Virus record (IMG/VR): IMGVR_UViG_2541047813_000002
Source of the DNA: a virus
Taxonomy: Duplodnaviria > Heunggongvirae > Uroviricota > Caudoviricetes
Reading direction: 5' to 3' (one strand)
Length of the DNA: 19,395 nt
The number at the start of each line of letters is the position of its first letter. The first letter of the stretch is position 1. The notes below the pieces were generated by a model, which was given only the letters and a program-made list of their open reading frames with translations, searched no databases and was not told the DNA's origin. Below are positions 1 to 16,761 of this stretch, in pieces. The position numbers and the translations under genes are program-made.

Positions 1-339
1 TTATAATTTGTTACTGTGCCACTCAAGGGCAATATCTTTGAAGGTGTTGTTTAACTGCGTTTCCCGGGCAATCTTTTCCTCTCGCTTCACTTCCATCAGA
101 TCGATTCCCCCAGAGATACCTCTTTTAGCTTCTTCAAGTTTTGCAGGAGCATCAGCTAAGGTGACCTCAGGATACACACCTAGTGCTAACAGCTTCTCTT
201 TACCAGCTACACGATACTTGAGACGCCAATATTCTCCTCCACCAGGTTTTACCAGGAGGTACAGACCACCACCATCAGCCAACTTGTAAGCCTTCTCTTT
301 TGGCTTGGCAGTGTCTATTTGACGGGCATTGAGTTTCAC
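1..339 (-). CDS. int: Tyrosine integrase (P4-type), N-terminal 112 codons only; the gene continues beyond the window start. Apparent GTG start at 339.
   Basis: ORF open to window edge. N-terminus (M)KLNARQIDTAKPKEKAYKLADGGGLYLLVKP...WRLKYR is about 92% identical to the N-terminus of the complete integrase at 18181-19395 and has the typical P4-like integrase arm-binding N-domain. In-frame TAG upstream excludes a longer ORF. Confidence 0.85.
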   Translation of the reverse strand: MKLNARQIDTAKPKEKAYKLADGGGLYLLVKPGGGEYWRLKYRVAGKEKLLALGVYPEVTLADAPAKLEEAKRGISGGIDLMEVKREEKIARETQLNNTFKDIALEWHSNKL

Positions 340-575
340 TTGGGGGTATCTCCACTAAACTGAACAGCAAATCCCCTCAATTGCTTGTAGAGTTTGGGGT
401 ACTTAAATAGACGTCAAAAGACTAAAAGGGGCATTAATATACTGATTATAAGAGGTTTTTAAATACTTGAGTAGACGGGGATAATAGGAACAAAACAAAC
501 AACAAAAACACATTGATATATAATTATATTTTTTCATTACATCTTATAAGATACCCCCAAAAGTACCCCCAAACA
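339..575. promoter_or_regulatory. Integrase-proximal inverted-repeat cluster around an AT-rich core; putative int promoter and att/arm-type site region at the junction between two tandem islands
   Basis: TTGGGGGTATCT at 340-351 (+) and its reverse complement at 550-561; TTTGGGGTACT at 393-403 (+) and AGTACCCCCAAA at 562-573; the pairs flank an AT-rich segment (about 404-549) immediately upstream of the int start. Confidence 0.3.
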
Positions 576-2925: not shown

Positions 2926-3682
2926 ATGCCTGAAATCGGCGGCGGAGAAACAGAGGATCGGGCTCGGTTGCCTGTAACTCTATCCGAAGTTATCCACATG
3001 TCAATGCACAGTTACTTAGGAAACTAACATAGATACTATCATCACTCACGAAAAACCACTATATGTGGTTTTTATTCATATCGTTATCCACTACAGGCTG
3101 TGTCAATAACTTTTACCTATTAATTGGGTAATTTCTACATTTTCCTATGCTGGCTAGTTTCTCTACTGAAAAGTTGGCACTCCTTAATCGCTTTTCGGTT
3201 AATACTATCGGTCTTCATATTGCCAGCAGCATACGCCATCCGATAATTTCTATGCTACGCGCGCGTACTTGTCGCAAAATATCAGGCAAAGGCCAGATTC
3301 AGAACGTCGTGATAACCACCAGCACAACATGAGATGTCATGTAACACGATTTATCACATCAGATACATGTGATTGGTGTACCCGCATAAAACATCGTCAT
3401 AGCGCGTCCTGTGCACATATACGCCGATAATCAACACATCACCACCACTCTGTCTCGTGTAGAGAACAGTTTCATGGTATCCCCCGCCATCGTGTGCGTA
3501 CTGGTCGGACGTAGTTGCAAAATTTTTGCAACTGATACCCCTCGCGCGCGTACTGGTCACGAAATTGGTGTTTTGCTGTGGCAGTGATATCAGAAAAATC
3601 TTCCTGTTTCACATAAAGCGGATATGCGCGTACTGTAACAGCCCCATCAACTGGGAGCGGATTTGAAATCCCGACCCAAGCT

Positions 3683-4102
3683 ATGTACCAAATGCCATGT
3701 CTTGGATATATGATGATTGCCATTCTAAACAAAGCTAAAGGGAGGGTTGGTGTGAATGCTCAGGCTGTCATCATGGTTTTCCTTGGTCTGATTGTCGCAA
3801 AACTATATCCAGACTGGTGGAAAGGGGCATTAGCAACTGTCGCCATCTATTTGCTTTTATCCGTCGTTAAGCGATCGTTCGTTAAGACCGTAAATCAAGC
3901 AAAACGTTTCTCATTTAAGAATTTAATAAACTATATTACTGGGCTTATTTTTTGCCTTTCACTTTTGATCGCTTCAGCTTTTTTGCCCGTATCAATAGCT
4001 AATTTTTTTGGCGCACCATATGAGGTAGGTTATCTATTCTCTGTTTTTTGTCTTGTTCTTTCCCTTCTTTACCTATGGATGAGAGCAAAGAACAAAAATT
4101 AG
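3683..4102 (+). CDS. Small polytopic membrane protein (about 116-139 aa); probable start GTG at 3752
   Basis: AAGGGAGGG sits 5 nt upstream of GTG 3752. Three to four hydrophobic helices (VIMVFLGLIVAKLY, ATVAIYLLLSVV, ITGLIFCLSLLIASAFL, LFSVFCLVLSLLYLW). AT-rich. Convergent with the 701-aa gene. Confidence 0.55.
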   Translation: MYQMPCLGYMMIAILNKAKGRVGVNAQAVIMVFLGLIVAKLYPDWWKGALATVAIYLLLSVVKRSFVKTVNQAKRFSFKNLINYITGLIFCLSLLIASAFLPVSIANFFGAPYEVGYLFSVFCLVLSLLYLWMRAKNKN

Positions 4103-4120
4103 CCATCCATGGCTAACCAG

Positions 4121-6226
4121 TTATTGAGCTTCTTTTTGTGATGCCTGTGCGACTCTGGTGAGCGATTGTGTGACCGTACTGATCGCTCTGTCATATGCTG
4201 TGCTACCTTTTGGCGTATTTGCCAGACGTAACAAGGCATTTCGTATAACAGGGCTTTCGTATGCCTTCGCTGCTCCGCCTACGGCACCAGCAGCAGGAAC
4301 AACAAACGCAGCCGTTTTTAGCATCCCCGCTAATACTGCTGCGTTTATGATGCCACCACCAACTAACAATCCATAAAGCTGCTGACCATTTAAGTTTTGA
4401 ACGTTCGCTTTTGCCGCGTGTCTTGTATCGTTGAGGTATTTAATAACGCCGTCCAGTTCCTTTCCATGTACGCCTTTAAAGAAAGTTGCTGATTGCTTCC
4501 TGTTCCGGTGTAACGCATTAATAAACTTCTCAACACTGATATTTCCAGACGGATCAGTCGCCTTATCTACAGCATTCTGAACTATGGCTGCTCGTGCGTT
4601 TTGCCTACCATTGTCATCCAGAAGCCTGTAAAGCTGAGAACGTTCTGATGGGCTTTGGCTAAAAACGAGTTTTGTTACATCCTCAGGCGTGGCCTTGCCG
4701 CTGGCTATTGCCTTTTGAACGCGCGTTCTTCCCATCATGTCATTGAATTTAGACCATGAACGATCAACCCTTGCCATATTAATGGCTTCGTCTGCTCCAA
4801 GATTTTTGGCTACGGCTTTTTTCATATCCGCCGTATATGCCTTGTAGATAATATCGCTGGCTTTCTGGAGCGTATCTTTATCAACAGTGTCAGATGACGC
4901 CATAAATCGCTTTCGAAGATCGGTTCTGTTTTCCCTCGCCAGACGCAGGTCATTTGGTCCGCTGGTGATATCGTCTTTAAATTGCTGCAAGACTTTTACC
5001 GCGGCTCTATCCTGAGATTTGCCCGGGCGGCTTAACACGGCAATCTGATTGTCGATAGCTTTTACCGTGTTTGAGAGATCGACAGGGGTATCCCCCATAG
5101 CGTCAATTATGCGGTTATATCGCTTTCCTGCTGCCTCAATGAATTTTTGTTGCCCTTTAGTCGCAGATTCATAAAGCTGTTTATCAGAAATGCCACCCAG
5201 ACCATCGCTAAATGTTCTGACTAAATTTTCTCGTGCTTGTTGTTGATTCAGCCGATTCTTACCGGTTCCAAAAAAAGGAACTCTTTCGCCTAATGTCTGA
5301 GCCTGACTCTGCATAAAGGTTTTATCTTTCAGCATGTCACTGGTCATTAACGGCAGATTTCTTTCCGATGCAAAGTCGACAGCAGCCTTTGCTTCAGGCG
5401 ACATATCACCACGAACAGCCCTCGAAACCGCACTCGCTGTATTTTCCAGCCCCTTACCAATACCACCAATGCCAGCAGAAATTACCGTTTGTAACGGTTC
5501 AATATCTTCTCCACCAGCAAGGCTAGTGGCTCCCTGTAGTGCTAAATCTGTAGCTGCTGATTTTCCTATGGCACCAAGCACCGTTCCAGCCCTGCCAGCT
5601 GGTGTAAACGCCAACGCATTAGCAAGAAACGAAGTCAGGTCTTGCGGTGATAAACCCGGCTTGTTCAGGGCATAATCACCTGATGGCAGAGAAACGATAG
5701 TATTCCCCTTCTCATCCTGCCTTAATGTCGCCCCCATTCCCTGAAGAATCTTTTCCTGAGACGCGTCAGAGCCGAAAAGTTGAGACCATCCAGCCTTTAG
5801 GGCATCCATGCTTAGTGAGTTCAATTCTGGGGCAGAGGCGACATTTTGCAGTCTCTCCATCTCTGGAGTCATTCGGCTTTCGCCTGTTATAGCATCGCGC
5901 ATCGCAGCCCCAAGACTGGCTCCCTGTTCTGCTGAACGCTCAAGCCCCTCTCTTTGCTGAGTAGCTAACTTTGCATACCCTGACGCAAGAGAATTATCAG
6001 ATGATGTATGTTGAATATTTTGAGTTGCTGATTGGGATCGGTCTATTTCATTCGTTGATGGTAGTGGATAGGCAGCATAAAAAGCCTGCTTAGCCTGCTC
6101 TACACTTTCTCCGGCTTGCGGGGCAACGACTTCATTGAAGTATTGCTCCTGAGCCTGCGCTTTTTGTTCTGGTGCTAACGCCTGATACTGTGGAGAGGCG
6201 ATAACATCTTTCCATGCTTTAGCCAT
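4121..6226 (-). CDS. Large Q/A/G-rich protein (701 aa) with C-terminal glycine-zipper hydrophobic segment; phage ejection/DNA-transfer protein-like (P22 gp16-like by size and position)
   Basis: Long ORF; ATGA start/stop overlap with the upstream gene at 6226; C-terminal LLVGGGIINAAVLAGMLKTAAFVVPAAGAVGGAAKA. The family assignment is an inference, not a match. Confidence 0.85.
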   Translation of the reverse strand: MAKAWKDVIASPQYQALAPEQKAQAQEQYFNEVVAPQAGESVEQAKQAFYAAYPLPSTNEIDRSQSATQNIQHTSSDNSLASGYAKLATQQREGLERSAEQGASLGAAMRDAITGESRMTPEMERLQNVASAPELNSLSMDALKAGWSQLFGSDASQEKILQGMGATLRQDEKGNTIVSLPSGDYALNKPGLSPQDLTSFLANALAFTPAGRAGTVLGAIGKSAATDLALQGATSLAGGEDIEPLQTVISAGIGGIGKGLENTASAVSRAVRGDMSPEAKAAVDFASERNLPLMTSDMLKDKTFMQSQAQTLGERVPFFGTGKNRLNQQQARENLVRTFSDGLGGISDKQLYESATKGQQKFIEAAGKRYNRIIDAMGDTPVDLSNTVKAIDNQIAVLSRPGKSQDRAAVKVLQQFKDDITSGPNDLRLARENRTDLRKRFMASSDTVDKDTLQKASDIIYKAYTADMKKAVAKNLGADEAINMARVDRSWSKFNDMMGRTRVQKAIASGKATPEDVTKLVFSQSPSERSQLYRLLDDNGRQNARAAIVQNAVDKATDPSGNISVEKFINALHRNRKQSATFFKGVHGKELDGVIKYLNDTRHAAKANVQNLNGQQLYGLLVGGGIINAAVLAGMLKTAAFVVPAAGAVGGAAKAYESPVIRNALLRLANTPKGSTAYDRAISTVTQSLTRVAQASQKEAQ

Positions 6227-7359
6227 TAATCACCCCATAGTGAAGAAAAGTTACTGCTGGCTGCTGGCTGTGATACCTGCTCAGATTGCGGCAATGTCTG
6301 CGACGAAGAAGAAGTTCCTCTGTCAACTGCTGAAATAACCCGCAAAGCATCATAAGCTCGACCAGAAGCAGCTTTCAGCGAATTGAACTGGTTTTCCATC
6401 TTCCGGCGCTTGGTATCAATGGTTTTTGTGGAGTCGCCAGGCTGAGGGAAATACATTTGATAATATTTTGACATTTCAGCAGGTGCGATAGCTGCCCCTG
6501 TTTCCTGACGGAGTATTGCCATTATTGCGTCATTAGCATTAACAACGTATTGCTGCTCTGTTGGGCTGAGCGTTAAGTTAGCCAGCGTCCCATTACCCAA
6601 AGCATTATTAATGATCGCCACTCGCTGTGGGCTAAGCTGGTCTCTCAGTGTATCTATTGAATCAAGAGCATCCCTAACCCTGTATGCAAATCCAGCAGCT
6701 TTTTTAGCCCCTTCTGGCGACTTTTCCATGATCTTTTGGGCTGTTGGCAAAGCTATTGGACGAAACCCATCTCCAGATATTGGCTGGTTTAGTTTTCCCT
6801 GCTCTTCACTTCCGTCTGTGTAGTATTTTGTGACAGTGCCATCATCGTTTTCTCTAACACTCATTAATTTTTTGGCGTTTGTATTAATTCCAGCCGCTGC
6901 CGCAAATGCCGCCGCCCCCTCTGGATCCGCCTTTAACATTTGAGCGTACTGATTGTAATTCTGCATTGCTGCTGTTGGTGCATATGCTGACGTTAACGCA
7001 TTTGCTCGGCTAATATCCTGCCCTCTCGCCTGAAGTGCTTCGCCAGCCTGATTGCTGCGGATTGTTTCTGCCAACTTGCCACGCTCAATATCCCGACCTT
7101 CCATTTGATCTTTGATATCGAAATACTTCTCATGACCGAGAGAAAACAGTGCCATACTACCAGCAAGCCGCTGGAATCCCTGTGGATCATTAACATGCAT
7201 TTCGGCAACAGACTCAGGAGAAATTCCCAAGCGACGCATTTCATCTTCGTTATCTGCTATGAATTTTCCAAATGCCCCAGTTCCGAGCGAAGATGCGATT
7301 TGAGCACTAGTCGCAAGATGACCAATAGAATTTCTCTGGTCGTCATCAATAAAGCCCAT
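6226..7359 (-). CDS. C-terminal 377 codons of an apparently split ~470-aa gene (P22 gp20-like size)
   Basis: Reading frame stays open and protein-like upstream of the ATG back to a TGA at 7420-7422. No usable RBS before ATG 7359 (AAAGGG abuts the ATG). Confidence 0.75.
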   Translation of the reverse strand: MGFIDDDQRNSIGHLATSAQIASSLGTGAFGKFIADNEDEMRRLGISPESVAEMHVNDPQGFQRLAGSMALFSLGHEKYFDIKDQMEGRDIERGKLAETIRSNQAGEALQARGQDISRANALTSAYAPTAAMQNYNQYAQMLKADPEGAAAFAAAAGINTNAKKLMSVRENDDGTVTKYYTDGSEEQGKLNQPISGDGFRPIALPTAQKIMEKSPEGAKKAAGFAYRVRDALDSIDTLRDQLSPQRVAIINNALGNGTLANLTLSPTEQQYVVNANDAIMAILRQETGAAIAPAEMSKYYQMYFPQPGDSTKTIDTKRRKMENQFNSLKAASGRAYDALRVISAVDRGTSSSSQTLPQSEQVSQPAASSNFSSLWGD

Positions 7360-7634
7360 CCCTTTCTGAACGCTTTCAAATTCTTCTGGATACTCAGCAT
7401 TTTGTTTCTGTCTCCAGACTCAAAAGCCCCGGCATATGCTTTCTGAAACTCTGCTTTACGCTGTTGTTGACGTGCCTGCTGATTAATCTCAGCAACGCCT
7501 CTTAGCCCCTGTAGCGCCATTAAACCTACGTTTGGCTGCTGCTGATACTGCACAGGCTGAGGAACGGAAGAACGAGGAGCATTATCATTTTGCGGTGCCA
7601 TGCTAGGCAGCCCGCCAAGTTGCCATGTCGCCAT
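7257..7634 (-). CDS. N-terminal fragment of the same split gene; translationally coupled to the upstream 225-aa gene (TAATG); protein-like only for the first ~80 codons
   Basis: ATG 7634 overlaps the stop of the 225-aa gene. Sequence is Q-rich like its neighbours until about 7400, then becomes junk-like (ALLMTTREILLVILRLV) where the 377-codon frame takes over. Confidence 0.5.
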   Translation of the reverse strand: MATWQLGGLPSMAPQNDNAPRSSVPQPVQYQQQPNVGLMALQGLRGVAEINQQARQQQRKAEFQKAYAGAFESGDRNKMLSIQKNLKAFRKGWALLMTTREILLVILRLVLKSHLRSELGHLENS

Positions 7635-8311
7635 TAGAATCCAAGCCCCCCAACAAGACCAATAAGCCCACCACCAATAGCCCCGGCGACATTACCTATA
7701 CCCGGAACAACGGAACCAAGTTGCGCACCCGCTAAAGCGCCTGATGCCGCCCCACCAATACCACGCGCAAGACTGGATGGCTGCTGCGCCTGACCTGCAC
7801 GAATAGCGCCAAGCCCCTGCAAGAGTTGCCCGGTATTATTGGCGTAGTTTTGCCCTGCTGTTGCCTGCCCTGATGCCGCATTCATCCCGACATTTAGCAG
7901 GTTTCCATAATTTTGCATTTGCCCACTAAGCCAATTGTTATAAAGCATGGGCGCAATGGAAGATAACTGGTTACTGGTAGCTGTTGAGCCAAGCCCCCCG
8001 GTAGCTTCTGCTGAGACAAGGTTCTGATAACGGGCCTGATCTGCCTGTGTTTTATATAAACCAGAACCAAAGAAATCATTCGCGGCTTTATTCTGCCCTT
8101 CCAGAGTCATCAGTCCTTGTAGTTGTTGTAAAGCAGGCAATCCGACTTCTGCATACGGCTTGAGATTATTCATCACCGTATTCCACTGCTCGCGCTGCAA
8201 ATCAATTGCCTGCTGCTGGGCCTTCGCCTGAGCTTTAGAGGCACCACCATCACCGCCTTTTTCGTATACGGCACGATTGAGATGTTTATGAGCTATATGG
8301 GTAATTAACAT
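7634..8311 (-). CDS. Q/G-rich protein (225 aa) with C-terminal glycine-zipper; ejection-protein-like (P22 gp7-like size)
   Basis: ATG 8311 with AAGGAA upstream; overlaps the stop of the 153-aa gene. Contains EKGGDGGASKAQAKAQQQ and ends GIGNVAGAIGGGLIGLVGGLGF. Confidence 0.85.
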   Translation of the reverse strand: MLITHIAHKHLNRAVYEKGGDGGASKAQAKAQQQAIDLQREQWNTVMNNLKPYAEVGLPALQQLQGLMTLEGQNKAANDFFGSGLYKTQADQARYQNLVSAEATGGLGSTATSNQLSSIAPMLYNNWLSGQMQNYGNLLNVGMNAASGQATAGQNYANNTGQLLQGLGAIRAGQAQQPSSLARGIGGAASGALAGAQLGSVVPGIGNVAGAIGGGLIGLVGGLGF

Positions 8312-8766
8312 TCGCTGAATTCCTTATATTGTTGCCGAGTTAACTGATAAAGCGTTACGCCGACGGGTTTACCACATCTGATATAAGCATCATCAAGGTG
8401 ACCAACACGGGTAGCGCCAAGCAAACGGATAATTGCCCGTCCGTATTTGGTGGTGTCAGGAACCATGGTAATGCTGTTAAGGAATGGTGAGTTTTCGAGA
8501 AGCCATTTGCAGAATAATCGATGCCCTTGCAGTGCATATTCACCACGGAATCCGGGGTCGTACACCGCATGGCATTCAACAATGCTATGCCAGAAGTTAC
8601 GCACTTCATGAACGCCAGCCAGCACCAATCCTTCGTAGATACCGAGATATACCGCATCAGGCTTGATGTAGTACGTGTGCCCCGGCTCAACAATATTTTC
8701 GGTATTGCCAGGCTCGTTAAGAAAGGCCTGTAATCGCACAGGGTTATCAATAAATTTTAGTTCCAT
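8305..8766 (-). CDS. Hypothetical protein (153 aa), first large gene of the operon
   Basis: ATG start; ORF; stop overlaps the start of the next gene. Confidence 0.8.
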   Translation of the reverse strand: MELKFIDNPVRLQAFLNEPGNTENIVEPGHTYYIKPDAVYLGIYEGLVLAGVHEVRNFWHSIVECHAVYDPGFRGEYALQGHRLFCKWLLENSPFLNSITMVPDTTKYGRAIIRLLGATRVGHLDDAYIRCGKPVGVTLYQLTRQQYKEFSEC

Positions 8767-8782
8767 GCGATGCCATCCATTT

Positions 8783-8944
8783 TCACATACAGCCTGCCAG
8801 CGCCTTATCTATTAACCCTCGTGCAATTTCATGCAGAGTTGGCGCTACTCCAATTCCTGATTTTTTACGCTGCTCTTCCTGAATTTTCTTTATCGCTTCC
8901 ATTTGCTTCTCACTTATCAATACCGGCTTTACTGAAATAGCCAT
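8783..8944 (-). CDS. Small RHH-like (ribbon-helix-helix) protein, 53 aa, below the ORF-track size cutoff
   Basis: ATG 8944 preceded by AAGGGGG (4-nt spacer). MAISVKPVLISEKQMEAIKKIQEEQRKKSGIGVAPTLHEIARGLIDKALAGCM has a beta-strand-helix-helix pattern. Ends 16 nt before the 153-aa gene. Confidence 0.45.
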   Translation of the reverse strand: MAISVKPVLISEKQMEAIKKIQEEQRKKSGIGVAPTLHEIARGLIDKALAGCM

Positions 8945-9039
8945 AACGCCCCCTTAGAACTGTATAAAACAACAGTTATTATAGTTTCATAAATCGCAAT
9001 ATTCATCATCGTGATTGCAAAATATGAAACAAATAGCAC

Positions 9040-9071
9040 AAAAAAATGCCACCGCTCAGTAGCTGGTGGCA
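9040..9071 (-). terminator. Rho-independent terminator for the primase transcript
   Basis: On the minus strand: TGCCACC-11 nt-GGTGGCA hairpin followed by TTTTTTT (plus-strand A-run 9040-9046). Confidence 0.55.
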
Positions 9072-9265
9072 TCGTTCTGTGTGTCAGGTTTTGACAGGTT
9101 TTTTATGGACTCTAAAAACTATATTTATGGTGTCGCATTACTCTTCACGGAAGGCGCTTTCCAGTTCTGCCCTTGCTTCTGGCTCCATTGGTAATTTGAT
9201 TCGCGATCAGCTATGCGGATGGTTTGCTGAACAGGCATAACAACTTCTCAGGGGCTGTTTTCTGA

Positions 9266-9342
9266 ACTACGAAAATTTCGTAGTGCTCACTTTCAAAAAC
9301 GTCACGCCCTTGTACACAGGATTTTACGAAAGTCTCGTAAAA
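9266..9342. promoter_or_regulatory. Two palindromes sharing TACGAAA half-sites within the origin region
   Basis: ACTACGAAAATTTCGTAGT (9266-9284, perfect 9-bp arms) and TTTTACG-7nt-CGTAAAA (9322-9342). Confidence 0.35.
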
Positions 9343-9392
9343 CACTCTCTGATGCCAGCCAGGTGTTGTGCGCATCAATTCAGTCACATTGT

Positions 9393-9504
9393 GTTGGTTC
9401 AAAATACCGTGTTGTTGGTTCAGTGTTGGTTCAATAAAAAGAATAAAATCCTTATAAAACAACACTCTTTACAAATTGAACCAACTGAACCAACTGAACC
9501 AACG
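9393..9504. repeat. Iteron module B (putative ori): GTTGGTTCA at 9393, 9414, 9425; AT-rich spacer; three contiguous TGAACCAAC at 9478-9504
   Basis: Read directly; lies between the primase stop (9529) and the terminator; reverse complement of module A. Confidence 0.75.
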
Positions 9505-9528
9505 CCTTTTCTACGCACATGAAGAAGC

Positions 9529-12288
9529 TCATTCTTCAGATGAGTTGTAATCTCCTGGCTGGTAATTGAGTACATAAACGTTTATTTGTCGTCCCTGAAT
9601 ACGTGGTGATTTTCTTTGGTATCCACGACCGCTGTTTGGTGGGGTTAGCATCCCGGCTTTTTTCAACACTTCAGCAAACTGTTTTGCGTTGAAACCACAT
9701 GCGATCTCCTTTTCAAATGTGGCCGGGAATGTGTAGAAAATCATTGGGCTTTCGTCATGTTCTCCACGCTGACGGTATCCGGCTAAATCTTTGATGGGCA
9801 AATCTGCCGGGCTGTATGGAAATGGTGCAAAACGGCTAAGCCCATAGGCATTAAGAAATGCCTCCGTTTGTTCAATAATCTGCTGATGTTCTTTGTTACC
9901 TGTGCCGAACTCGCGCAACCATGCGTTATAGCTGTGCTGTATCGCATCACGGCATGTCTGAGCATCCCAGCCTGTTACAACCTCGCCTAACAGCAATGCG
10001 GCCTCCAGAATGGCAAATCGCGCGGCTACACGGTGAACCTGCTCACCATAATCGGATGGGATCAGACTTCTCCATCTGCTTTCGCAGTCACGAACAGTTT
10101 TAATTGCCTGTTGCTGGTGGTCTGCCAGCCATTTAATCCACTCACGCCCGGCTGCGCCGTGGTGATGCTGGTAAGCGTCTTTCAGTGCGTCTGCGTGCTG
10201 TTTTCCGTTCTGGTAATCGTGAAAGCGTACTGCTTTACTCAACGGAATATTCAGCAGTCGCACCAGTTGTCCGGCTTTGGTTTTTCGCCCGGAAGTAGCG
10301 ATAAATGTTTCTAAATCCATTTCTCCGGTGCTGATTGCCACTGTACGCCAGCGTTTTAGATCCCGGTTTCCACCATCTTTAGCGCCTTGCAGTTTCCCTA
10401 CACCGTTAAATAACGCATAGGCAGACTGTGAAACACTGACAGGATCAGCGCCCTGACCAACTTCATCAAGCGGCATTAGTCCGTCATTGTGGGCGGCGGC
10501 TTCATTTGCCAGCCCCAGCGCGGTTCCGTACCACGTCAGCCGCAGTAAATCAGGGTTGCCGTATAAGCTGCTCGCCACGTTTGCCGTGGTGGTCTTACCT
10601 GCGCTCGACTGCTCATAGAAATGAATGCCGAACCCGTCAGCGCCCACCAGCCCAATCAATGGCGCTGCCAGTGCTGCGCCGATCCCGGTCATCATTGAAT
10701 AGTTACCAAAGGCCAGACGCGCCACGTTATCACGCCAGCTTTTCGCGCTCCCTGAGACGGTATATCCGGCTGCGGCTGAGCTTCTCCCGCTGAACAGCAC
10801 AGGATTTTCAGGTGTTCCGATGATTTCCCCATCAGGCATGATGTACGCTCCGCATTGCCAGCCAGTGGCATGAGCAACACGCCACAATTCACGAGAGCCA
10901 CTGCGTTGTAGCCAGTCTGCCAGTATTGCTCTGAGGCTGCTTTTGGTCGTGACATTTACCCCACCAGCTTTAAGTGTGCGCCATCCTTCACGTTCACCAA
11001 TATCAGCCAGTGGAATGGCAGCGGTTGTCGGCGTTTCAGAACCAAACGACAGCCAGCGAAGAATGAGATACTGGTCTTTATCGTCTCTGCCAGTACCGAT
11101 AACGCTTAACGGCGAACATAACCAGCTTTCGTTATTGATGATTTCTCCACTCTGGCTGTCAGCTCTCGGAGATACCCAATAAATACCATCCTCTCGGCTT
11201 TCTATTCTTGGTTTCAGTGGGTCGGTATCCATAACCTTAAAATCGCTTCCCTCAATGGTCTGTGGCTCCTGTTTCACGCCATTACCCTGTGGTTGGTACA
11301 TTGACTTATTGAACGTTTCTGTGGCGCATTTAATGCCGTGTTTTTGGTGGTAATCATTCCAGTCTGCTTTGTGATCTGTCGGGGGTAATGCCACCCATCC
11401 AGAAACAGATAAAGCTGCTTTTTCTGCTGCTATTCTCCCCGTGTTTTGTCTTCCTTCGCTGTGGTCGTTATCCGCAGCAATGATGATTTGTGCTGAAGGA
11501 TATTTATCCCGCAGTACCTGGGCGACATATAACAGGTTCCCGGCATCAATCGCCGCCACTGTCAGCGCCTCTGGACGAATTAAATGGGCAGATAATGCCG
11601 TTGCCAGCCCTTCTGCGATTAAGATGCTCTGTGTTGTTTCTGGTGCGTTTATGGCGTGATATGCTCCCCGTTTTGCTGAACCTGTCAGGAGTCTTTTTTC
11701 ACCATGTGAGGTAATAGTCTGTGCTGCTGTGACTGCGCCGGATTTATCCACCAGCGCCAGCAACAGAGATCCATCGGGCAACACGGGGAATGTAAAATCA
11801 CCTACCCCTTTCGCAACCAGATAATCAGATTTACCGTTTACAGCCTTTCTGCGCATGTCATCAAACTGACGGGAAAACGTATCCCGTCTTTGTTGTTCGT
11901 CCTTCTCTGCCCTTTTCAGGCGCTCCTGTTCGCGTCGCTGGCGCTCGGTTTCCAGTTGTTCCCGTTTCTGGCTGGTGGCTTCTGGTGTTTCCGTTGTCCG
12001 GTAATCAATACCCAGAACATCAGCGGCAAGAAGCGCCGCCTCTGTTGTGTCGCAGTTATTTACGCGTTTAATTAAATCCAGCCCATCACCAGCGCCGCAC
12101 TGATTACAGATGAAGCTACCGCGCCCGTTGTCATCGAACCGGAATCGATCTTTGCCCCCACATGCAGGGCAGGGAGCATGACGGCGCGGAGAGTCAGGGA
12201 CATTTATGTTCAGGCAGCCCAGCACATGAGGCCAGTTGTTTTCAGACGCACTGATAACCTGACGGATAAGATCAATGTTTCGCATCAC
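9529..12288 (-). CDS. Primase with zinc-ribbon and Toprim domains plus a P-loop NTPase-like domain (P4 alpha-like); probable start ATG at 12285
   Basis: CPACGGKDRFRF...FICNQCG zinc ribbon; Toprim acidic motif IIIAADNDH; P-loop-like SSAGKTT; 919-aa ORF. Confidence 0.95.
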   Translation of the reverse strand: MMRNIDLIRQVISASENNWPHVLGCLNINVPDSPRRHAPCPACGGKDRFRFDDNGRGSFICNQCGAGDGLDLIKRVNNCDTTEAALLAADVLGIDYRTTETPEATSQKREQLETERQRREQERLKRAEKDEQQRRDTFSRQFDDMRRKAVNGKSDYLVAKGVGDFTFPVLPDGSLLLALVDKSGAVTAAQTITSHGEKRLLTGSAKRGAYHAINAPETTQSILIAEGLATALSAHLIRPEALTVAAIDAGNLLYVAQVLRDKYPSAQIIIAADNDHSEGRQNTGRIAAEKAALSVSGWVALPPTDHKADWNDYHQKHGIKCATETFNKSMYQPQGNGVKQEPQTIEGSDFKVMDTDPLKPRIESREDGIYWVSPRADSQSGEIINNESWLCSPLSVIGTGRDDKDQYLILRWLSFGSETPTTAAIPLADIGEREGWRTLKAGGVNVTTKSSLRAILADWLQRSGSRELWRVAHATGWQCGAYIMPDGEIIGTPENPVLFSGRSSAAAGYTVSGSAKSWRDNVARLAFGNYSMMTGIGAALAAPLIGLVGADGFGIHFYEQSSAGKTTTANVASSLYGNPDLLRLTWYGTALGLANEAAAHNDGLMPLDEVGQGADPVSVSQSAYALFNGVGKLQGAKDGGNRDLKRWRTVAISTGEMDLETFIATSGRKTKAGQLVRLLNIPLSKAVRFHDYQNGKQHADALKDAYQHHHGAAGREWIKWLADHQQQAIKTVRDCESRWRSLIPSDYGEQVHRVAARFAILEAALLLGEVVTGWDAQTCRDAIQHSYNAWLREFGTGNKEHQQIIEQTEAFLNAYGLSRFAPFPYSPADLPIKDLAGYRQRGEHDESPMIFYTFPATFEKEIACGFNAKQFAEVLKKAGMLTPPNSGRGYQRKSPRIQGRQINVYVLNYQPGDYNSSEE

Positions 12289-12643
12289 CGTACCCCACGT
12301 GGTCTATAGCGTTTGCGATATGGCTAACCAGCATCTGCCACTTGGTTATTCCGTAATCAGTCAGCATGCCATCATTGTTTAGCCACATATCAAATTCAGC
12401 GGTTGTCGCAAGTTTCCACTTATCGCCGTGGACAGTCCTCATTGCTGGGTACATGAATGCGCAAATCAGATCACAAACATCTGACGGCTTCAGAGATGTA
12501 GTAATGGTGCGTCCCTCTGGCGTCTGAATTGCCATTTTCTCTTCACCAGTAGAATGAAGGTTATGAATCCACACAGCGCCAGCAATCTTTGCCACCTGCT
12601 CTCCGATTGCGGAGCTAAGCGCCATTTCTGCATTTTCACGCAT
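12272..12643 (-). CDS. Hypothetical protein (123 aa); paralog of the upstream 113-aa gene
   Basis: GGGAGG sits 6 nt upstream of ATG 12643; start overlaps upstream stop (ATGCGTGA). Shares NDGMLTDYGITKWQML with KDGLTDVGREIWQSM in the neighbour. Confidence 0.75.
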   Translation of the reverse strand: MRENAEMALSSAIGEQVAKIAGAVWIHNLHSTGEEKMAIQTPEGRTITTSLKPSDVCDLICAFMYPAMRTVHGDKWKLATTAEFDMWLNNDGMLTDYGITKWQMLVSHIANAIDHVGYGDAKH

Positions 12644-12977
12644 GAGAACCTCCCGCTACAGTTGCGCCCATGTCATTAACCATGCTTTGCCATATCTCAC
12701 GCCCGACGTCAGTCAATCCGTCCTTAGTGACGCAACGATCAAGAAGCTCTATCCCCACGGTTTCCCACTGCGGGTAGAACACTTTCATGGCTGCCAGTGT
12801 GTAGCTATCGATCAGGCTGCGAACGCCTTTTACTCCATTGACGATTTCCACACGGACGGCCTCGCCGTCCGCATCAACCATGAAATAGTCCCCGCCGCTG
12901 GTGGAGGTAATGTGGTTATACAGTGCCGACGCATACTTATTTGCCAGCGCATTTAGTCGGAAATTTTTAGTAATCAT
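12636..12977 (-). CDS. Hypothetical protein (113 aa); paralog of the 123-aa gene
   Basis: ATG 12977; ORF; shared motif with the downstream gene. Confidence 0.75.
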   Translation of the reverse strand: MITKNFRLNALANKYASALYNHITSTSGGDYFMVDADGEAVRVEIVNGVKGVRSLIDSYTLAAMKVFYPQWETVGIELLDRCVTKDGLTDVGREIWQSMVNDMGATVAGGSHA

Positions 12978-12987
12978 GGCTCCATCC

Positions 12988-13590
12988 TCAGTGCGTCACT
13001 GGTTCCGCTGGCATGCCGTTTTCATTCAGTTCAGCTATAAAGCTGTTGTGAAGTTCAGCAAGCGTTTCACGACCAAATGGAGTCAGTGCTCCTTGTTCCA
13101 CATCCATCATGGCTCTGTAGAAAATGATGGCGCGTTCTGTGCCAGACTCGATGCCAAAACGTTCTATCATCGCGCCCTCAATGTTGTTTGCCATAGCGAG
13201 GCGCTCTGCTACTGGATACAGCGGCATGGCGACGATGCCGTTGGAATAAACAGCCACTTCGGAAGGATTGCCAGTATCATCAATGATGCTGACAGTGCCG
13301 TTTTCCTCTCTCATTTCCAGCATGAATACTGTTGCGATCAGCCATCTCCACATAATGACGTTATGCTGTGATGTGTAATCGAAATATCCCTGGTTGCCGC
13401 CATCGGCAATAGCGAGATGTATTGACATACCTTCATCTGGTTTATCGTCATAATCCCCGGCATCCAGACGATTTACGGCATCAATATATGAGACGGCCTC
13501 AACGCGTTCTGTCATGCCATCGTTGCTGCGGTACATGATGTTTACGCCGTCAGGCGTTGCTTCTGCATGGAAAGTTAAGAAATTATTCAT
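12988..13590 (-). CDS. Hypothetical protein (200 aa); start reassigned to ATG 13590
   Basis: GAGG RBS, and ATGAATAA overlap with the stop of the upstream 73-aa gene. The ORF-track extension to 13695 overlaps that gene out of frame. Confidence 0.7.
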   Translation of the reverse strand: MNNFLTFHAEATPDGVNIMYRSNDGMTERVEAVSYIDAVNRLDAGDYDDKPDEGMSIHLAIADGGNQGYFDYTSQHNVIMWRWLIATVFMLEMREENGTVSIIDDTGNPSEVAVYSNGIVAMPLYPVAERLAMANNIEGAMIERFGIESGTERAIIFYRAMMDVEQGALTPFGRETLAELHNSFIAELNENGMPAEPVTH

Positions 13591-13804
13591 GTTTCGCCTC
13601 GCCTGAATGATTCTGTAACTCATATTTGCCCAACAATTCGTCCGCTTCCTGAATAGCTTCTGGTACGCCATTGAGCAGTGACATAACCGCGCCAATCATT
13701 AACTTGTCTCTGTTGCTGGGGCTGGCCCCTTCAAGCCAGAACCCTAAAACAGTCTGAACCTGTTCGATGCGACATTGCGCTTCAATGAGCTGGATGTTGG
13801 TCAT
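13583..13804 (-). CDS. Hypothetical small protein (73 aa)
   Basis: ATGA overlap with upstream gene; part of the coupled operon. Confidence 0.65.
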   Translation of the reverse strand: MTNIQLIEAQCRIEQVQTVLGFWLEGASPSNRDKLMIGAVMSLLNGVPEAIQEADELLGKYELQNHSGEAKHE

Positions 13805-14064
13805 TTCGCACTCTCCACATCGATTAAACCGATATCTATCAGGGAGGTAACTTTTTGTAGCCAGCTATTGATTACTGTCGCCTGTTCCCCTCCCACCGAG
13901 GGAACAATCTCATTCATCACATGAACCAGACCTGTGCGCGCTCTGGTAAGCCGTTCAGTCGCGCAATCTGCGGGAGTGAATGTGTCTGGATATGGCTCTT
14001 CGCGCCCCAGCAATGATTCAATTTCCAGCTCACACGGATGACGATAAATTAAGTTGATATTCAT
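13801..14064 (-). CDS. Hypothetical small protein (87 aa)
   Basis: ATGA overlap with upstream gene; part of the coupled operon. Confidence 0.65.
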   Translation of the reverse strand: MNINLIYRHPCELEIESLLGREEPYPDTFTPADCATERLTRARTGLVHVMNEIVPSVGGEQATVINSWLQKVTSLIDIGLIDVESAK

Positions 14065-14255
14065 TTTTCACCCCCAAGAATTACCAGCTCTGCACGGGCA
14101 TCGTTAACCAAAGATGAGCACGCTTTAATCGCATCCACGACATCAGCAGCGTCCATTTCTTCAGCCGAAAGACTGACAGCAACCAGGACAGCCGCTGCTT
14201 GCTCGATTAATTGAAGTGCGGACGTAAGGCGAGGGGTATTAATTGAGTTATTCAT
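14061..14255 (-). CDS. Hypothetical small protein (64 aa; [10 protein letters not shown]...)
   Basis: ATG 14255 with GGGGG upstream; ATGAATAA overlap with the stop at 14248-14250. Confidence 0.6.
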   Translation of the reverse strand: MNNSINTPRLTSALQLIEQAAAVLVAVSLSAEEMDAADVVDAIKACSSLVNDARAELVILGGEK

Positions 14256-14466
14256 TGGTTGCCCCCGTTTTTCCTGGCATTTCGCCACCTTCCAGCAGGA
14301 AATGAACGTCGCGAACGGCGAGGTCCAATATCGCGAGTAACGCCTTCAGTCTTTCGTCTCGTGAGGGAGAGTTGCTCACCAGAATGTCGTTAATCACTTC
14401 TGTCAGTGTGATGATCTGGCTTGTGCGTTCGAGGGGGTCCATATGCACATCGTAGGTTTTAATCAT
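14248..14466 (-). CDS. Hypothetical small protein (72 aa; [17 protein letters not shown]...)
   Basis: GGAGGTGG sits 6 nt upstream of ATG 14466; ATGATTAA overlap with the stop of another frame. In-frame with the long ORF 14248-15315. Confidence 0.5.
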   Translation of the reverse strand: MIKTYDVHMDPLERTSQIITLTEVINDILVSNSPSRDERLKALLAILDLAVRDVHFLLEGGEMPGKTGATNE

Positions 14467-15315: not shown

Positions 15316-15491
15316 TTGTTAACCTCCGCGAACTCCTTCATGAAACGTGCCAGCGGTTGTACGCATGGCGATTGATACCCGTCGCGATAAAACGTCACTC
15401 GGTTGTGAGACACGCTTTCGACAGTAACGAGTGCTCCGTGGGCATCTTTGTAGCGTTTTTGTGGTTGTGGTGTTCCTGTTGGCTTAGACAT
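15309..15491 (-). CDS. Hypothetical small protein (60 aa; MSKPTGTPQPQKRYKDAHG...)
   Basis: GGAGGTGG sits 5 nt upstream of ATG 15491, which overlaps the stop of the Rha gene. The longer 89-codon ORF would overlap Rha by 95 nt. Confidence 0.55.
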   Translation of the reverse strand: MSKPTGTPQPQKRYKDAHGALVTVESVSHNRVTFYRDGYQSPCVQPLARFMKEFAEVNKC

Positions 15492-16317: not shown

Positions 16318-16329
16318 TTTCAGTCTCCG

Positions 16330-16761
16330 TTAGGCGGCGTTAAACGCGTCCGGGTAGAGTTTCAGAATGTCGGCAATTTCCTGCTGAGAAAGTCCGTTGT
16401 GATCATTTATGTTCGCAAGATGGTTAACATGAGTGATCACTTTCAGAACATCACCACGGCAGGAGAAACGGTAGCGAAGGTGTGTTCCGATACCATCAGG
16501 ATTCTTTTCGTCGATACGCTCCAGAGTGATTCCAAGCTGGCGTTCTAACTCTGTTGCATAGTTACGACCAGAAGACAGACGGCAGTAGCGAAGAATGTCA
16601 TTTTCTGTCCATCCCTCTATACCAGTACGCAGCATATAGACTCGGGCGCGATGCTTTTTCGGTGTGCGCTTTGGTGCTTGAAGGGATTTTGTCAGGGGCG
16701 TAACATCAGATACGCGAATATCTGAATTAGCCGCCTGTAATGGGCGGTTTTTCTTATTCAT
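16330..16761 (-). CDS. Hypothetical basic protein (143 aa) coupled to alpA
   Basis: TAATG overlap with the alpA stop; ORF. Confidence 0.75.
   Translation of the reverse strand: MNKKNRPLQAANSDIRVSDVTPLTKSLQAPKRTPKKHRARVYMLRTGIEGWTENDILRYCRLSSGRNYATELERQLGITLERIDEKNPDGIGTHLRYRFSCRGDVLKVITHVNHLANINDHNGLSQQEIADILKLYPDAFNAA

Follow-up and report, generated by a model that had tools for sequence, protein, structure and literature searches.

Organization of the cassette

The stretch of DNA analysed here (19,395 nucleotides, referred to as the window) contains a minus-strand operon with the order 53-aa ORF, gp14, gp7, gp20 and gp16. For coordinates and family matches see Table 1. The small first ORF, the coupled ORFs of 153, 225 and 701 aa and the split gene listed in the initial annotation are all present. 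The 53-aa ORF is separated from gp14 by 16 nt, and the start and stop codons of gp14/gp7, gp7/gp20 and gp20/gp16 overlap by 1–7 nt.

Table 1. Features of the window and their coordinates.
Feature	Position	Strand	Details
TCCTATTATC, att core reported for EcCIMP1	480-489	minus	marks distal end of island
Convergent multi-pass membrane protein gene, 139 aa	3683-4102	plus	129 aa if start at 3713
Terminator-like hairpin	4097-4118	minus	immediately 3' of gp16 stop codon
gp16 homologue (membrane-associated ejection protein), 701 aa	6226-4121	minus	phrog_770 'DNA transfer protein', 3.9e-163
gp20 homologue (periplasmic conduit protein)	7634-6226	minus	pseudogene here; pieces match Inj_translocase/gp20 (4e-11 and 6e-37); phrog_917, 1.6e-78
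Split gp20 ORFs, 125 aa and 377 aa	7634-7257; 7359-6226	minus	
gp7 homologue (ejection protein), 225 aa	8311-7634	minus	P22_gp7 (PF25688), 1.9e-72; island-specific lineage
gp14 homologue, 153 aa	8766-8305	minus	DUF2824/P22 gene 14 family, profile matches 2.3e-61 and 2e-66
53-aa ORF	8944-8783	minus	first ORF of operon
CTGT-N8-ACAG palindrome AACTGTATAAAACAACAGTT	8960-8975		LexA (SOS) box-like, between -10 and start codon
-10 hexamer TATAAT, cassette promoter	8978-8983	minus	perfect hexamer, read from sequence
Inverted repeat, 17-nt arms GTTTCATATTTTGCAAT / ATTGCGATTTATGAAAC	8984-9030	minus	spans cassette promoter -35; candidate operator
Hairpin and T-run	9037-9081	minus	divides replication module from cassette promoter
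Origin-like iterons, 3 x GTTGGTTCA, AT-rich spacer, 3 x inverse	9391-9503		direct copies 9391-9434, inverse copies 9471-9503
Primase/helicase-type replication protein	9529-12288	minus	Zn-ribbon, Toprim, DUF927
AlpA-family regulator	16761-16958	minus	
Tyrosine integrase	18181-19395	minus	adjoins tRNA-Thr (thrW), tRNA just outside window

The proposed resemblance to the gp14-gp7-gp20-gp16 ejection cassette of P22-like phages is borne out by Pfam and PHROG searches, with E-values from 1e-61 to 1e-163 across the four homologues, and by direct BLASTP comparison with P22. The gp16 homologue aligned with P22 gp16 over 482 aa (30% identity, E 4e-53) and gp20 with P22 gp20 over 239 aa (38% identity, E 8e-45). 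Judged by these matches, the family assignments are far beyond chance, and the option that the proteins bear no similarity to P22 ejection proteins falls away. The 701-aa gp16 shows 67.6% identity to phage N7 and gp14 shares 83% aa identity with Kapi1 gp14. P22 gp14 is an accessory gene of the ejection-protein cluster and is annotated 'head morphogenesis'.

The cassette resembles P22 in the order and tight coupling of genes 14, 7, 20 and 16, in all four family memberships and in a convergent gene for an inner-membrane protein that lies about 20 bp past gene 16 (sieA in P22). Unlike in P22, gp4, gp10 and gp26 are missing upstream and the tailspike is missing downstream. The search for capsid, portal, terminase and tail genes was negative for the whole window and for 43 kb of surrounding sequence in strain YP3, in agreement with the earlier description of a satellite-type island that has no other virion genes.

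The split of gp20 results from a single 13-bp deletion after window position 7396, which shifts the frame near codon 80; the intact form comprises 473 aa. This deletion is the sole difference from strain YP3 over the 4.8-kb cassette and is absent from all 187 complete E. coli genomes in which the segment occurs. Since gp20 is broken by a private deletion, the window's copy of the cassette is probably not functional.

Identity and backbone of the island

The E. coli island is a member of the EcCIMP1-type phage satellite family, first published in 2025. EcCIMP1 is a PICI of E. coli MP1 (Pick, Stadel and Raivio, ISME J 2025, PMC11773190), which is induced and transduced by the P22-like phage Kapi1. 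Its excision occurs only with Kapi1 present and requires alpA, AlpA being the master activator (PMC11773190). The backbone (window 7474–16949, 9.5 kb) is 98.05% identical to EcCIMP1, and the integrases share 98% nucleotide identity. Both islands are inserted at the same tRNA-Thr gene (thrW, proA-yagU) next to the same vat/MarR island. They also share the order int, AlpA, AntA/B, ash, primase, origin, 53-aa ORF, gp14, gp7, gp20 and gp16-type gene. The match to TCCTATTATC at the distal end is not above chance by itself; this att core is known from Pick et al.

The two islands differ in a replaced region that begins near gp20 codon 54, includes gp16 and extends to the downstream gene. The window has the 473-aa gp20 (intact form; frameshifted in the window), a 701-aa gp16 of P22/N7 type and a 4-TM protein, whereas in EcCIMP1 gp20 has 439 aa, gp16 is a 906-aa SLT-domain protein of HK620 type (48–50% identical) and the downstream gene is a 232-aa lipoprotein-like one. 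With respect to cargo, the window carries AbiD and DUF6387 and lacks a second alpA.

As noted initially, a primase module adjoins the cassette. The claim that inverted iterons flank the cassette held for the primase side; on the other flank only scattered repeats of 10–23 nt were observed. The iterons belong to the replication module and its origin, not to the cassette, and islands with a DUF5906 primase have other repeats in their place.

Several features recall P4-like satellites: the 'ash' region contains a C4/CI-type antisense RNA and isrK, and the island also has an int-alpA RNA, an AlpA regulator and a primase of the Zn-ribbon/Toprim type, with AbiD as defence cargo close to the element end. 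It departs from P4-like satellites in that none of the ORFs scanned here gave an HMM match annotated sid, psu or delta, and in that the characterised relative has a podovirus of P22 type as its helper instead of a P2-like myovirus. The satellite is a PICI with a P4-like immunity RNA that parasitizes P22-like podophages.

Promoter region and leader ORF

The cassette has its own promoter, a LexA-box-like site and the 53-aa ORF, in contrast to P22, where these genes are reached by read-through from the Q-dependent late promoter. The TATAAT hexamer is invariant across all aligned loci. The -35 region is poor, which is why a consensus promoter scan missed this promoter. All E. coli island variants have kept the inverted repeat with 17-nt arms, as have the relatives from Serratia, Citrobacter and Klebsiella; the upstream hairpin with its T-run is kept in the E. 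coli variants.

The CTGT-N8-ACAG palindrome, for which 0.23 sites per window are expected by chance, recurs in 14 of the 15 island loci; these span three genera, and the spacers vary and have diverged. Elsewhere in the approximately 420 kb of fetched loci the pattern matches only dinD, an SOS gene whose promoter served as a positive control within the same loci, and one other site. From pattern and conservation only, on which the box assignment is based, the cassette looks like it is under DNA-damage (LexA) control. Such a conserved LexA-box-like palindrome in the cassette promoter is new for this family, and it recalls packaging operon I of the SaPIs, which is LexA-controlled (PMC5052747). 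Operon I likewise follows the replication module, and the predicted LexA control would couple expression to helper induction. The payload differs, being terS, cpmA/B, ppi and pti in SaPIs and ejection proteins here.

The leader ORF is 100% identical among the five 53-aa island copies compared, 87% identical in two 57-aa variants and 81–87% identical in Citrobacter and Serratia. It had no family match in the searches run, Pfam and PHROG profile searches among them, and is a putative small regulator. In a Klebsiella relative, the operon driven by a homologous promoter and leader ORF contains Terminase_2 and DUF2280 genes. The same regulatory head with another payload suggests that this position is the satellite's helper-exploitation slot.

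Pick et al. described the cassette genes as "DNA transfer"-like and surmised a function in packaging; the genes (DUF2824-like among them) were listed as packaging candidates and not analysed as an ejection-protein cassette (PMC11773190). In this reading, helper procapsid initiation or packaging would be redirected to satellite DNA, with gp16 acting as a 'pilot' protein during procapsid initiation. It is in line with the location of the cassette after the primase and the origin, the place of the packaging genes in PICIs, and with the small-terminase-type genes of the Klebsiella operon. However, a DNA-recognition role is not known for ejection proteins, and the island yielded neither a terS gene nor any nucleotide match to the terS/pac region of Kapi1. 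The proteins are moreover full-length orthologues of virion ejection proteins, neither truncated nor derived, and we consider a packaging role very unlikely.

Distribution and selection

The promoter-plus-leader region is present in 500 of 5,426 complete E. coli genomes (9%). E. coli islands with the cassette occupy thrW and the yicC-dinD site and differ in integrase and primase. Citrobacter islands carry the 53-aa ORF, DUF2824, gp7, gp20 and SLT/gp16, and Serratia islands the 53-aa ORF, gp20 and SLT/gp16. Comparison of related islands, proposed at the outset, revealed that the unit is kept beside the primase/AlpA/integrase backbone without adjacent P22 structural genes. The cassette is maintained as a unit in Escherichia, Citrobacter and Serratia satellites without any other virion gene, which is new.

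All cassette genes are intact in 9 of the 12 copies inspected. The remaining three, the window's own included, have a broken gene, and gp16 is truncated in two of them. A circular 12-kb variant has lost nearly the whole cassette and is the sole locus without gp16. Some islands lack gp14 and gp7, and even so gp20 and gp16 occur together in all 14 cassette-bearing island copies inspected. This joint retention fits swap experiments in P22, where gp20 and gp16 must match one another: exchange of gp16 or gp20 singly gives dead virions, while full foreign sets assemble into virions and function (PMC10883804).

A further new result is that purifying selection acts on all four genes, with dN/dS among island copies of 0.10 (gp14), 0.07 (gp7), 0.23 (gp20) and 0.11 (gp16). 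The gp7 proteins are 99–100% identical among E. coli islands and 74–82% identical to the Citrobacter island copy. Their best match in 50,697 phage records reaches at most 70% identity over 60% of the protein; by this comparison, island gp7 is a separate lineage absent from these records.

These data bear on the suggestion that the cassette is a passively captured fragment of a P22-like late operon, perhaps acquired along with a useful exclusion gene and hitch-hiking without a function of its own. Such a relic could explain the frameshifted gp20, the two truncated gp16 genes, the loss from the circular variant and the recent recombination with prophages described below. Against it speak purifying selection on each of the four genes and conservation across genera, a frameshift private to the window, a gp7 lineage common to E. 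coli and Citrobacter, a dedicated promoter with its operator and LexA-box-like site, all of them conserved, and an occurrence in 9% of the complete E. coli genomes. We give this explanation little credence.

Exchange of the gp20–gp16 block

The gene convergent to gp16 has the position and orientation of sieA in P22 and encodes four or five hydrophobic segments. Its product showed no significant similarity to P22 SieA, and is 88% identical (aa) to its positional counterpart in a genuine P22-like prophage at argW. Sister islands do hold a SieA-like exclusion gene downstream of gp16 (204 aa, RYPGEA motif, phrog_7745), a new finding from sequence comparison; in EcCIMP1 of strain MP1 the sieA position is taken by the 232-aa lipoprotein-like gene. 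Window 3730–5998 is 93% identical in DNA to the same argW prophage, and the segment non-homologous to EcCIMP1 is exactly window 3678–7473. At least three alleles of gp20 and gp16 exist, which are 22–55% identical, against 99–100% identity for the 53-aa ORF, gp14 and gp7 where present. These alignments show, as another new point, that C-terminal gp20, gp16 and the convergent membrane gene are swapped among islands and with P22-like prophages.

In another reading, the cassette together with the adjacent membrane gene acts against P22-like phages. Its ejection proteins could disturb conduit assembly of an incoming phage in the resident cell, or mismatched gp20/gp16 could join helper virions and cut their infectivity. 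The non-infectious P22 particles with single mismatched swaps and the SieA-like gene beside gp16 in sister islands would fit. On the other hand, EcCIMP1 does not lower Kapi1 titres after induction, and the LexA-box-like site predicts low expression in uninduced cells, when exclusion would be needed. Retention of gp14 points toward virion assembly, the published immunity phenotype is more simply explained by the gene at the sieA position, and PADLOC gave no match for any cassette protein. Exclusion or interference is thus unlikely.

Alternatively, the cassette could be an insurance that complements P22-like prophages without ejection-protein function, so that the satellite is still mobilised. 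Pick et al. made a parallel proposal for the second AlpA/Xis-like gene of EcCIMP1, where alpA_1 can replace Kapi1 xis. Degraded P22-like prophages with a frameshifted gene 16 do occur in E. coli, and complete foreign sets work in P22. For so rare a situation, however, weak selection would be expected, which contrasts with the observed dN/dS values and conservation in three genera; allele turnover limited to gp20/gp16 and the downstream gene would be left unexplained. We regard this as quite improbable.

Proposed mechanism

Capsid-forming PICIs (cf-PICIs) have genes of their own for capsid, portal, terminase and connector proteins; their tails are borrowed. The EcCIMP1-type family is similar in that the satellite itself encodes part of the virion, beyond redirecting helper proteins, and differs in that it encodes only internal, ejected proteins and borrows everything else. 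The island carries a full P22-like DNA-injection protein set in place of packaging genes.

Based on these results we propose that upon SOS induction the satellite gives its own ejection proteins to helper-built capsids and thereby sets its own entry properties. We hold this reading tentatively, as a real possibility somewhat short of probable. We favour it over exclusion or a decoy. The cassette would be a helper-exploitation module, located where other PICIs and SaPIs hold the packaging operon. For an EcCIMP1-type island we infer the following steps. In the resting cell the operon would be repressed by LexA, probably together with a second factor at the inverted-repeat operator. DNA damage would induce the resident P22-like helper prophage and lead to cleavage of LexA, so that the operon fires while procapsids are being built. 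Satellite gp7, gp20 and gp16 would then enter helper procapsids beside or in place of the helper's own proteins, aided by gp14. It counts against this reading that DNA packaging follows the entry of ejection proteins into procapsids, so that proteins of the satellite cannot be directed specifically to particles with satellite DNA. Particles with satellite DNA would build the trans-envelope conduit from satellite-specified gp20 and gp16. The block of C-terminal gp20, gp16 and the downstream membrane or exclusion gene is traded with P22-like phages as a unit, which may give every satellite lineage its own entry and exclusion specificity.

The satellite would thus no longer depend on ejection proteins of its helper, and it might get past SieA-type blocks to injection where the recipient is a lysogen; SieA-escape mutations are located in gp16 and gp20. 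In the work of Leavitt et al., however, the two types of SieA did not differ in specificity and most ejection-protein sets were excluded, with partial resistance limited to the HK620 set, which makes a benefit from evading SieA-type blocks speculative. Unaltered Kapi1 titres and a very low transduction frequency of EcCIMP1 (PMC11773190) also count against a supply of own ejection proteins. The broken genes in three of 12 copies, the cassette-less circular 12-kb variant and the islands without gp14 and gp7 were weighed in the same direction.

Gene content and layout of the ejection cassette

The operon at window positions 4121-8944 consists of a 53-aa leader ORF followed by homologues of P22 gp14, gp7, gp20 and gp16. 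All open reading frames listed in the initial annotation were found on the minus strand, at the positions collected in the table. Its proposed likeness to the gp14-gp7-gp20-gp16 set of P22 was borne out by profile searches against Pfam and PHROG, which placed all four proteins. The 701-aa gp16 homologue had no above-threshold match in the Pfam scan of the cassette ORFs; in BLASTP, P22 gp16 aligned with it across 482 aa (E = 4e-53). For gp20, the intact allele of E. coli strain YP3 was compared with the P22 protein (E = 8e-45). The nearest gp16 from a sequenced phage is that of Lederbergvirus N7 (67.6% identity), and gp14 of the P22-like phage Kapi1 is 83% identical to the 153-aa protein. As had been described, the genes are coupled: comparison with P22, HK620, Kapi1 and N7 gave the order 14-7-20-16 with abutting or overlapping ends, an arrangement typical of phage late operons. 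The RHH-like fold ascribed to the 53-aa ORF was confirmed by none of the methods applied.

The split of gp20 is caused by a single 13-bp deletion after window position 7396, the sole difference between the window and YP3 over the 4.8-kb cassette. This deletion was present in none of 187 complete E. coli genomes having the segment and is thus either a private mutation or an assembly error.

At the gp20/gp16 junction (window 6058-6289) the nucleotide identity to Sf6, HF4s and other phages is 95-96%, compared with about 33% for the genes otherwise. Over its first ~55 aa, gp16 keeps 74-84% identity between very different alleles. Judged from these alignments, the junction is a putative conserved recombination joint or assembly signal.

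Features of the cassette, its promoter region and its surroundings (window coordinates; L-numbers denote fetched relative loci)
Feature	Position	Strand	Match or remark
53-aa ORF	8944-8783	minus	operon leader
gp14 homologue, 153 aa	8766-8305	minus	DUF2824 PF11039 2.3e-61; phrog_651 2e-66
gp7 homologue, 225 aa	8311-7634	minus	PF25688 P22_gp7 1.9e-72; phrog_598 1.2e-69
gp20 homologue, split	7634-7257 + 7359-6226	minus	PF16928 Inj_translocase 4e-11, 6e-37; phrog_917 1.6e-78
gp16 homologue, 701 aa	6226-4121	minus	phrog_770 'DNA transfer protein' 3.9e-163
Hairpin with T-run	9037-9081
Inverted repeat, 17-nt arms	8984-9030
TATAAT, perfect	8978-8983
AACTGTATAAAACAACAGTT, CTGT-N8-ACAG palindrome	8960-8975		two bases after TATAAT
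Membrane-protein gene, 139 aa	3683-4102	plus	129 aa with start at 3713
SieA type-B-like protein, 204 aa	L020 11368-11982; L024-L026 867/868-1481/1482		sister islands
Lipoprotein-like protein, 232 aa	L022 12632-13330		EcCIMP1, after the gp16-type gene
Citrobacter counterpart of the 232-aa protein	L035 15353-16171		88% identical
C4 RNA	14707-14794	minus	Rfam RF01695, 81 bits
isrK	14857-14934	minus	Rfam, 69 bits
int-alpA RNA	18053-18120	minus	Rfam RF02996, 46.7 bits; directly after integrase gene
Abi_2 protein, 340 aa	1903-2925	minus	PADLOC AbiD 8.4e-58
146-aa ORF	1433-1873	plus	beside PerC gene

An EcCIMP1-like satellite at thrW

The window is an E. coli chromosomal island of roughly 19 kb at the tRNA-Thr gene thrW, adjoining proA, which extends from about window position 480 to slightly past the window end. 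Read along the minus strand, it encodes an integrase, a DUF6387 protein, an AlpA regulator, an AntA/B antirepressor-family protein and a DUF4222 protein. These are followed by the 'ash' region, several small ORFs, a Zn-ribbon/Toprim/DUF927 primase and the origin iterons, and finally by the ejection cassette, a convergent membrane-protein gene, AbiD and a PerC-family regulator. Integrase, AlpA, primase, a nearby origin and a size of 10-20 kb without capsid, tail or lysis genes are the features of a PICI of EcCIMP1 type, and the island shows all of them. The island is 98.05% identical to EcCIMP1, a PICI of E. coli MP1, across 9.5 kb (window 7474-16949) and 98.2% identical in the integrase, and is therefore an EcCIMP1-like satellite. 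Both share the thrW site, with the att core TCCTATTATC at window 480-489.

EcCIMP1 occupies the same site in E. coli MP1 and was found to excise and circularise only with its helper Kapi1 (Pick et al., ISME J 2025, PMC11773190). It requires alpA, Kapi1 transduces it at low frequency, and it contributes to the superinfection immunity of Kapi1 lysogens (PMC11773190). Its genes EcCIMP1_017-019 were called 'DNA transfer'- and DUF2824-like and named as packaging candidates, with no further description (Pick et al., PMC11773190). A circular 12-kb relative, deposited as a 'plasmid', has lost the cassette and is the only inspected locus from which gp16 is missing.

The earlier view of a satellite-type island with no other virion genes agrees with the surroundings of the cassette, namely the primase upstream and AbiD/PerC downstream. 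A complete or remnant P22-like prophage was rejected on the same grounds, with true prophages as the comparison: there is no gp4, gp10 or gp26 upstream and no tailspike downstream of the cassette. A cryptic P22 remnant left at the P22 attachment site was rejected as well, since the same cassette and backbone occur between yicC and dinD with another integrase. The inverted iterons proposed to flank the cassette are present on the primase side (9391-9503), where they form an origin-like structure of the replication module. On the other flank the claim did not hold; window 3258-3635 contains scattered short repeats only, in a region without phage match.

As in P4-like satellites, the island contains a CI/C4 immunity RNA, and isrK lies like C4 within the 355-aa ORF of an 'ash family protein'. 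Together they indicate that the island has an RNA immunity region of P4 type; the long 'ash' ORF may be an over-prediction. The Pfam and PHROG scans of the island ORFs brought up no family annotated as the P4 genes sid, psu or delta; the matches in this check were DUFs or families of unknown function.

Conservation of the cassette as a unit

We compared related islands, as the initial annotation had proposed, and found the cassette kept as a unit in satellites of E. coli, Citrobacter and Serratia without P22 structural neighbours. E. coli islands with the backbone and cassette of the window occupy two sites, thrW and the interval between yicC and dinD; at yicC-dinD the integrase is another one, and in some islands so are the origin and the primase (DUF5906). 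Only searches with the 53-aa ORF, an island-specific marker, revealed the islands of other genera. The Citrobacter island has the order 53-aa ORF, DUF2824, gp7, gp20, SLT/gp16, and the Serratia island the order 53-aa ORF, gp20, SLT/gp16, without gp14 and gp7; both islands have an int/AlpA/ash/DUF927-primase backbone. A cassette of gp20 and gp16 without gp14/gp7 is seen in some E. coli islands too, and the gp20-gp16 pair was kept in all 14 cassette-bearing island copies inspected. A 563-bp segment with the 53-aa leader ORF and the promoter region occurs in 500 of 5,426 complete E. coli genomes (~9%). A scan for gp16 with one genome per species yielded 13 matches, two of them too short-flanked to classify; the 11 with readable flanks were all in ordinary P22-like prophages, and one window-identical Escherichia contig was set apart.

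The dN/dS ratios, calculated from six to eight island copies with the same allele, are 0.10 for gp14, 0.07 for gp7, 0.23 for gp20 and 0.11 for gp16. All cassette genes are intact in nine of 12 copies inspected; the window is one exception, and in the two others gp16 is truncated. Between E. coli islands gp7 is 99-100% conserved, and the Citrobacter island copy is 74-82% identical to it; its identity to any of 50,697 phage records is at most 70% over 60% of its length. This combination marks the island gp7 as a long-resident, satellite-specific lineage. The cassette is unlikely to be a passive fragment in decay, and we give very little credence to a hitch-hiking relic.

Block exchange with P22-like phages

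The 53-aa ORF, gp14 and gp7 are near-invariant among the islands having them; of gp20 and gp16 there are at least three alleles, with 22-55% identity between them. The stretch of the window that is non-homologous to EcCIMP1 comprises exactly positions 3678-7473 and so takes in gp16, the gene after it and all of gp20 beyond about codon 54. Within it, window 3730-5998 matches a genuine P22-like prophage at argW with 93% identity, and the membrane-protein gene located there shows 88% protein identity to its counterpart in that prophage. The replaced stretch and the prophage identity together indicate that islands and P22-like phages exchange C-terminal gp20, gp16 and the downstream gene as one block. 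The gp16 of EcCIMP1 is different: it has 906 aa and an SLT domain and is 48-50% identical to HK620 gp16, but only ~25% identical to gp16 of the proven helper Kapi1.

A LexA-box-like promoter

All E. coli variants share a conserved stretch of about 400 bp ahead of the 53-aa ORF, irrespective of the upstream replication module. Overlapping the core promoter is a CTGT-N8-ACAG site (see table), which is kept in 14 of 15 island loci. Serratia and Citrobacter retain the promoter core, the inverted repeat and the palindrome, with spacers that have diverged, and the Klebsiella relative has one mismatch. Elsewhere in ~420 kb of fetched loci the pattern occurs at two places only, window 18165 and the promoter of dinD, an SOS gene that acts as an internal positive control. 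We read the palindrome as a predicted LexA box. If so, helper prophages and the operon would respond to one SOS signal, which induces the former and would derepress the latter. Operon I of the SaPIs, their packaging module, is controlled by LexA/SOS (PMC5052747).

In Klebsiella michiganensis (L033/L034, genes after 10001) a 63-aa leader homologue and a homologous promoter/operator precede a different operon, with Terminase_2 and DUF2280 genes, several unknowns, and then Fic and Abi_C. Since the same head drives small-terminase-type genes there, the slot appears to be the satellite's helper-exploitation module. A role of the cassette itself in packaging or procapsid initiation is highly improbable in our estimate. 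A pac-site mimic was rejected, as a sensitive blastn search of the window and EcCIMP1 against Kapi1 1-35435 (including terS and terL) returned similarity in gp14/gp7 only.

The second CTGT-N8-ACAG site (window 18165-18180) is located right after the integrase stop and is present in the window and YP3, not in the other island loci. Window 9082-9345 (minus strand) is non-coding and conserved in all E. coli variants. It contains the palindromes TACGAGACTTTCGTA and TACGAAATTTTCGTA, and its motifs GAAGAGTAATGCGACACCATAAA and GAGTCCATAAAA are also found in Citrobacter and partly in Serratia. Citrobacter islands have a 329-aa gene of which the segment may be the leftover 3' end; alternatively, it may be a site for regulation or packaging.

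The gene at the sieA position

In P22, sieA is convergent to gene 16 with a gap of 23 bp; the membrane-protein gene of the window is likewise convergent and ends 19 bp from the gp16 stop. Its product has four or five hydrophobic segments and resembles SieA in being multi-pass and convergent after gene 16. Homology to SieA was rejected (BLASTP against P22 SieA, E = 0.42). The FxRYPxEAxxFNK motif of SieA is not in the protein, no match was obtained in PHROG, Pfam or PADLOC, and tblastn against the 50,697 phage records returned nothing. From its position, its topology and its co-inheritance with gp16, it is a candidate analogue of SieA in role.

Sister islands with the same gp16 allele encode a 204-aa membrane protein at this position, directly after gp16. 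It is 28.7% identical to P22 SieA (E = 5e-7), contains the RYPGEA core of the published SieA motif ('NRYPGEA'), matches the SieA family phrog_7745 (2e-4) and has the size expected of a type B SieA. Leavitt et al. (mBio 2024, PMC10883804) reported sieA from P22-like prophages alone, a rule that SieA-like genes on satellites would widen.

SieA blocks injection, and the mutations that escape it lie in the C-terminal regions of gp16 and gp20 (PMC10883804). Full foreign sets of ejection proteins assembled and worked in P22, whereas swapping gp16 or gp20 alone gave dead particles (PMC10883804). Two island features agree with these results: the retention of the gp20-gp16 pair and the exchange of the C-terminal part together with the gene at the exclusion position.

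After its gp16-type gene EcCIMP1 encodes a 232-aa protein with a lipoprotein-like signal (…LLAGC), which has a close relative in a Citrobacter island and no family match. This protein is a candidate for the reported, unexplained superinfection immunity of EcCIMP1. That published immunity also speaks for the cassette as a whole being an exclusion or interference module. Helper titres, however, were unchanged, expression is predicted to occur upon SOS only, and the gene at the sieA position is a simpler explanation of the immunity; we therefore consider an exclusion module unlikely.

Proposed mechanism

Based on gene content, conservation and the predicted operator we propose, tentatively and at a little short of even confidence, that upon SOS the satellite supplies its own ejection proteins to helper procapsids and so sets its own entry and exclusion properties. 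SOS induction would turn the cassette on while a P22-like helper is building procapsids. Satellite gp7, gp20 and gp16 would then go into these procapsids, with gp14 as an assembly aid. Particles with packaged satellite DNA would inject via a satellite-specified conduit, and the exchangeable block of gp20, gp16 and exclusion gene would confer lineage-specific entry and exclusion properties.

Several points argue against such a supply of ejection proteins. These proteins are loaded before the DNA and thus cannot be specific to satellite-carrying particles. In the EcCIMP1 system helper titres are unchanged and transfer is rare. Both SieA types tested were alike in specificity, excluding most ejection-protein sets. 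Degraded copies exist, among them the window, and the 12-kb circular relative has lost the cassette. A more far-reaching version lies, in our judgement, on the doubtful side: satellites would re-arm helper-built P22-like virions with their own gp20/gp16 conduit, would trade it and the adjacent exclusion gene with P22-like phages as one entry/exclusion-specificity module, and could enter cells where helper particles fail, including lysogens with SieA-type injection blocks. Complementation of defective helpers by the cassette genes seems a very remote explanation to us.

The island family and its P22-like helper are already published and the cassette genes were noticed there; the window is therefore an allelic variant of the EcCIMP1 family. 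What is new is that the cassette has been identified exactly and found to be complete, that it is conserved across genera under purifying selection, and that it shares a block-swap architecture with P22-like phages. New as well are the SieA-like genes on satellites and the conserved LexA-box-like promoter. In the searchable literature the EcCIMP1 paper was the only one on satellites with ejection proteins, and literature searches found no paper treating EcCIMP1_017-019 as an ejection-protein cassette. Known satellites act on helper capsid size, packaging specificity or late transcription. No satellite described as supplying envelope-crossing DNA-delivery proteins was found in the searchable literature. 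If the more far-reaching version is true, this would be the first known satellite controlling DNA delivery instead of capsid size or packaging; a satellite that provides DNA-delivery proteins would be a new mode of helper exploitation. Satellites using the cassette in this way would set host-entry and exclusion properties independently of the helper, which would affect the spread of PerC-like virulence regulators and defence genes (AbiD, RnlAB and others) in Enterobacterales. Since an experimental EcCIMP1/Kapi1 system exists, these hypotheses are directly testable.

Further features of the island

The N-terminal fragment of a second integrase (112 aa, ~90% similar, window 1-339) lies just beyond the att core, and a second, integrase-truncated island carrying vat comes after the satellite. 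The position of the fragment places the satellite in tandem with a vat/MarR island at thrW, as described for MP1.

An Abi_2 protein at the distal end represents anti-phage cargo; at the AbiD region sister islands carry other genes, among them ImmA/IrrE (E. coli) and RnlAB toxin-antitoxin or Abi_2 (Serratia). Between AbiD and the membrane-protein gene is an ORF-poor stretch of ~750 bp with the direct repeats CGCGCGCGTACTKGTC… and GCGCGTACTG (five copies) at window 3258-3635. Window 3193-3677 is 95.7% identical to EcCIMP1 despite differing genes on one side. An int-alpA RNA follows the integrase gene (see table). The 146-aa ORF, which has no informative family match, accompanies PerC in the seven full-context E. 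coli islands fetched and in the 12-kb circular record, and is absent beside PerC in EcCIMP1 of MP1 (L022).
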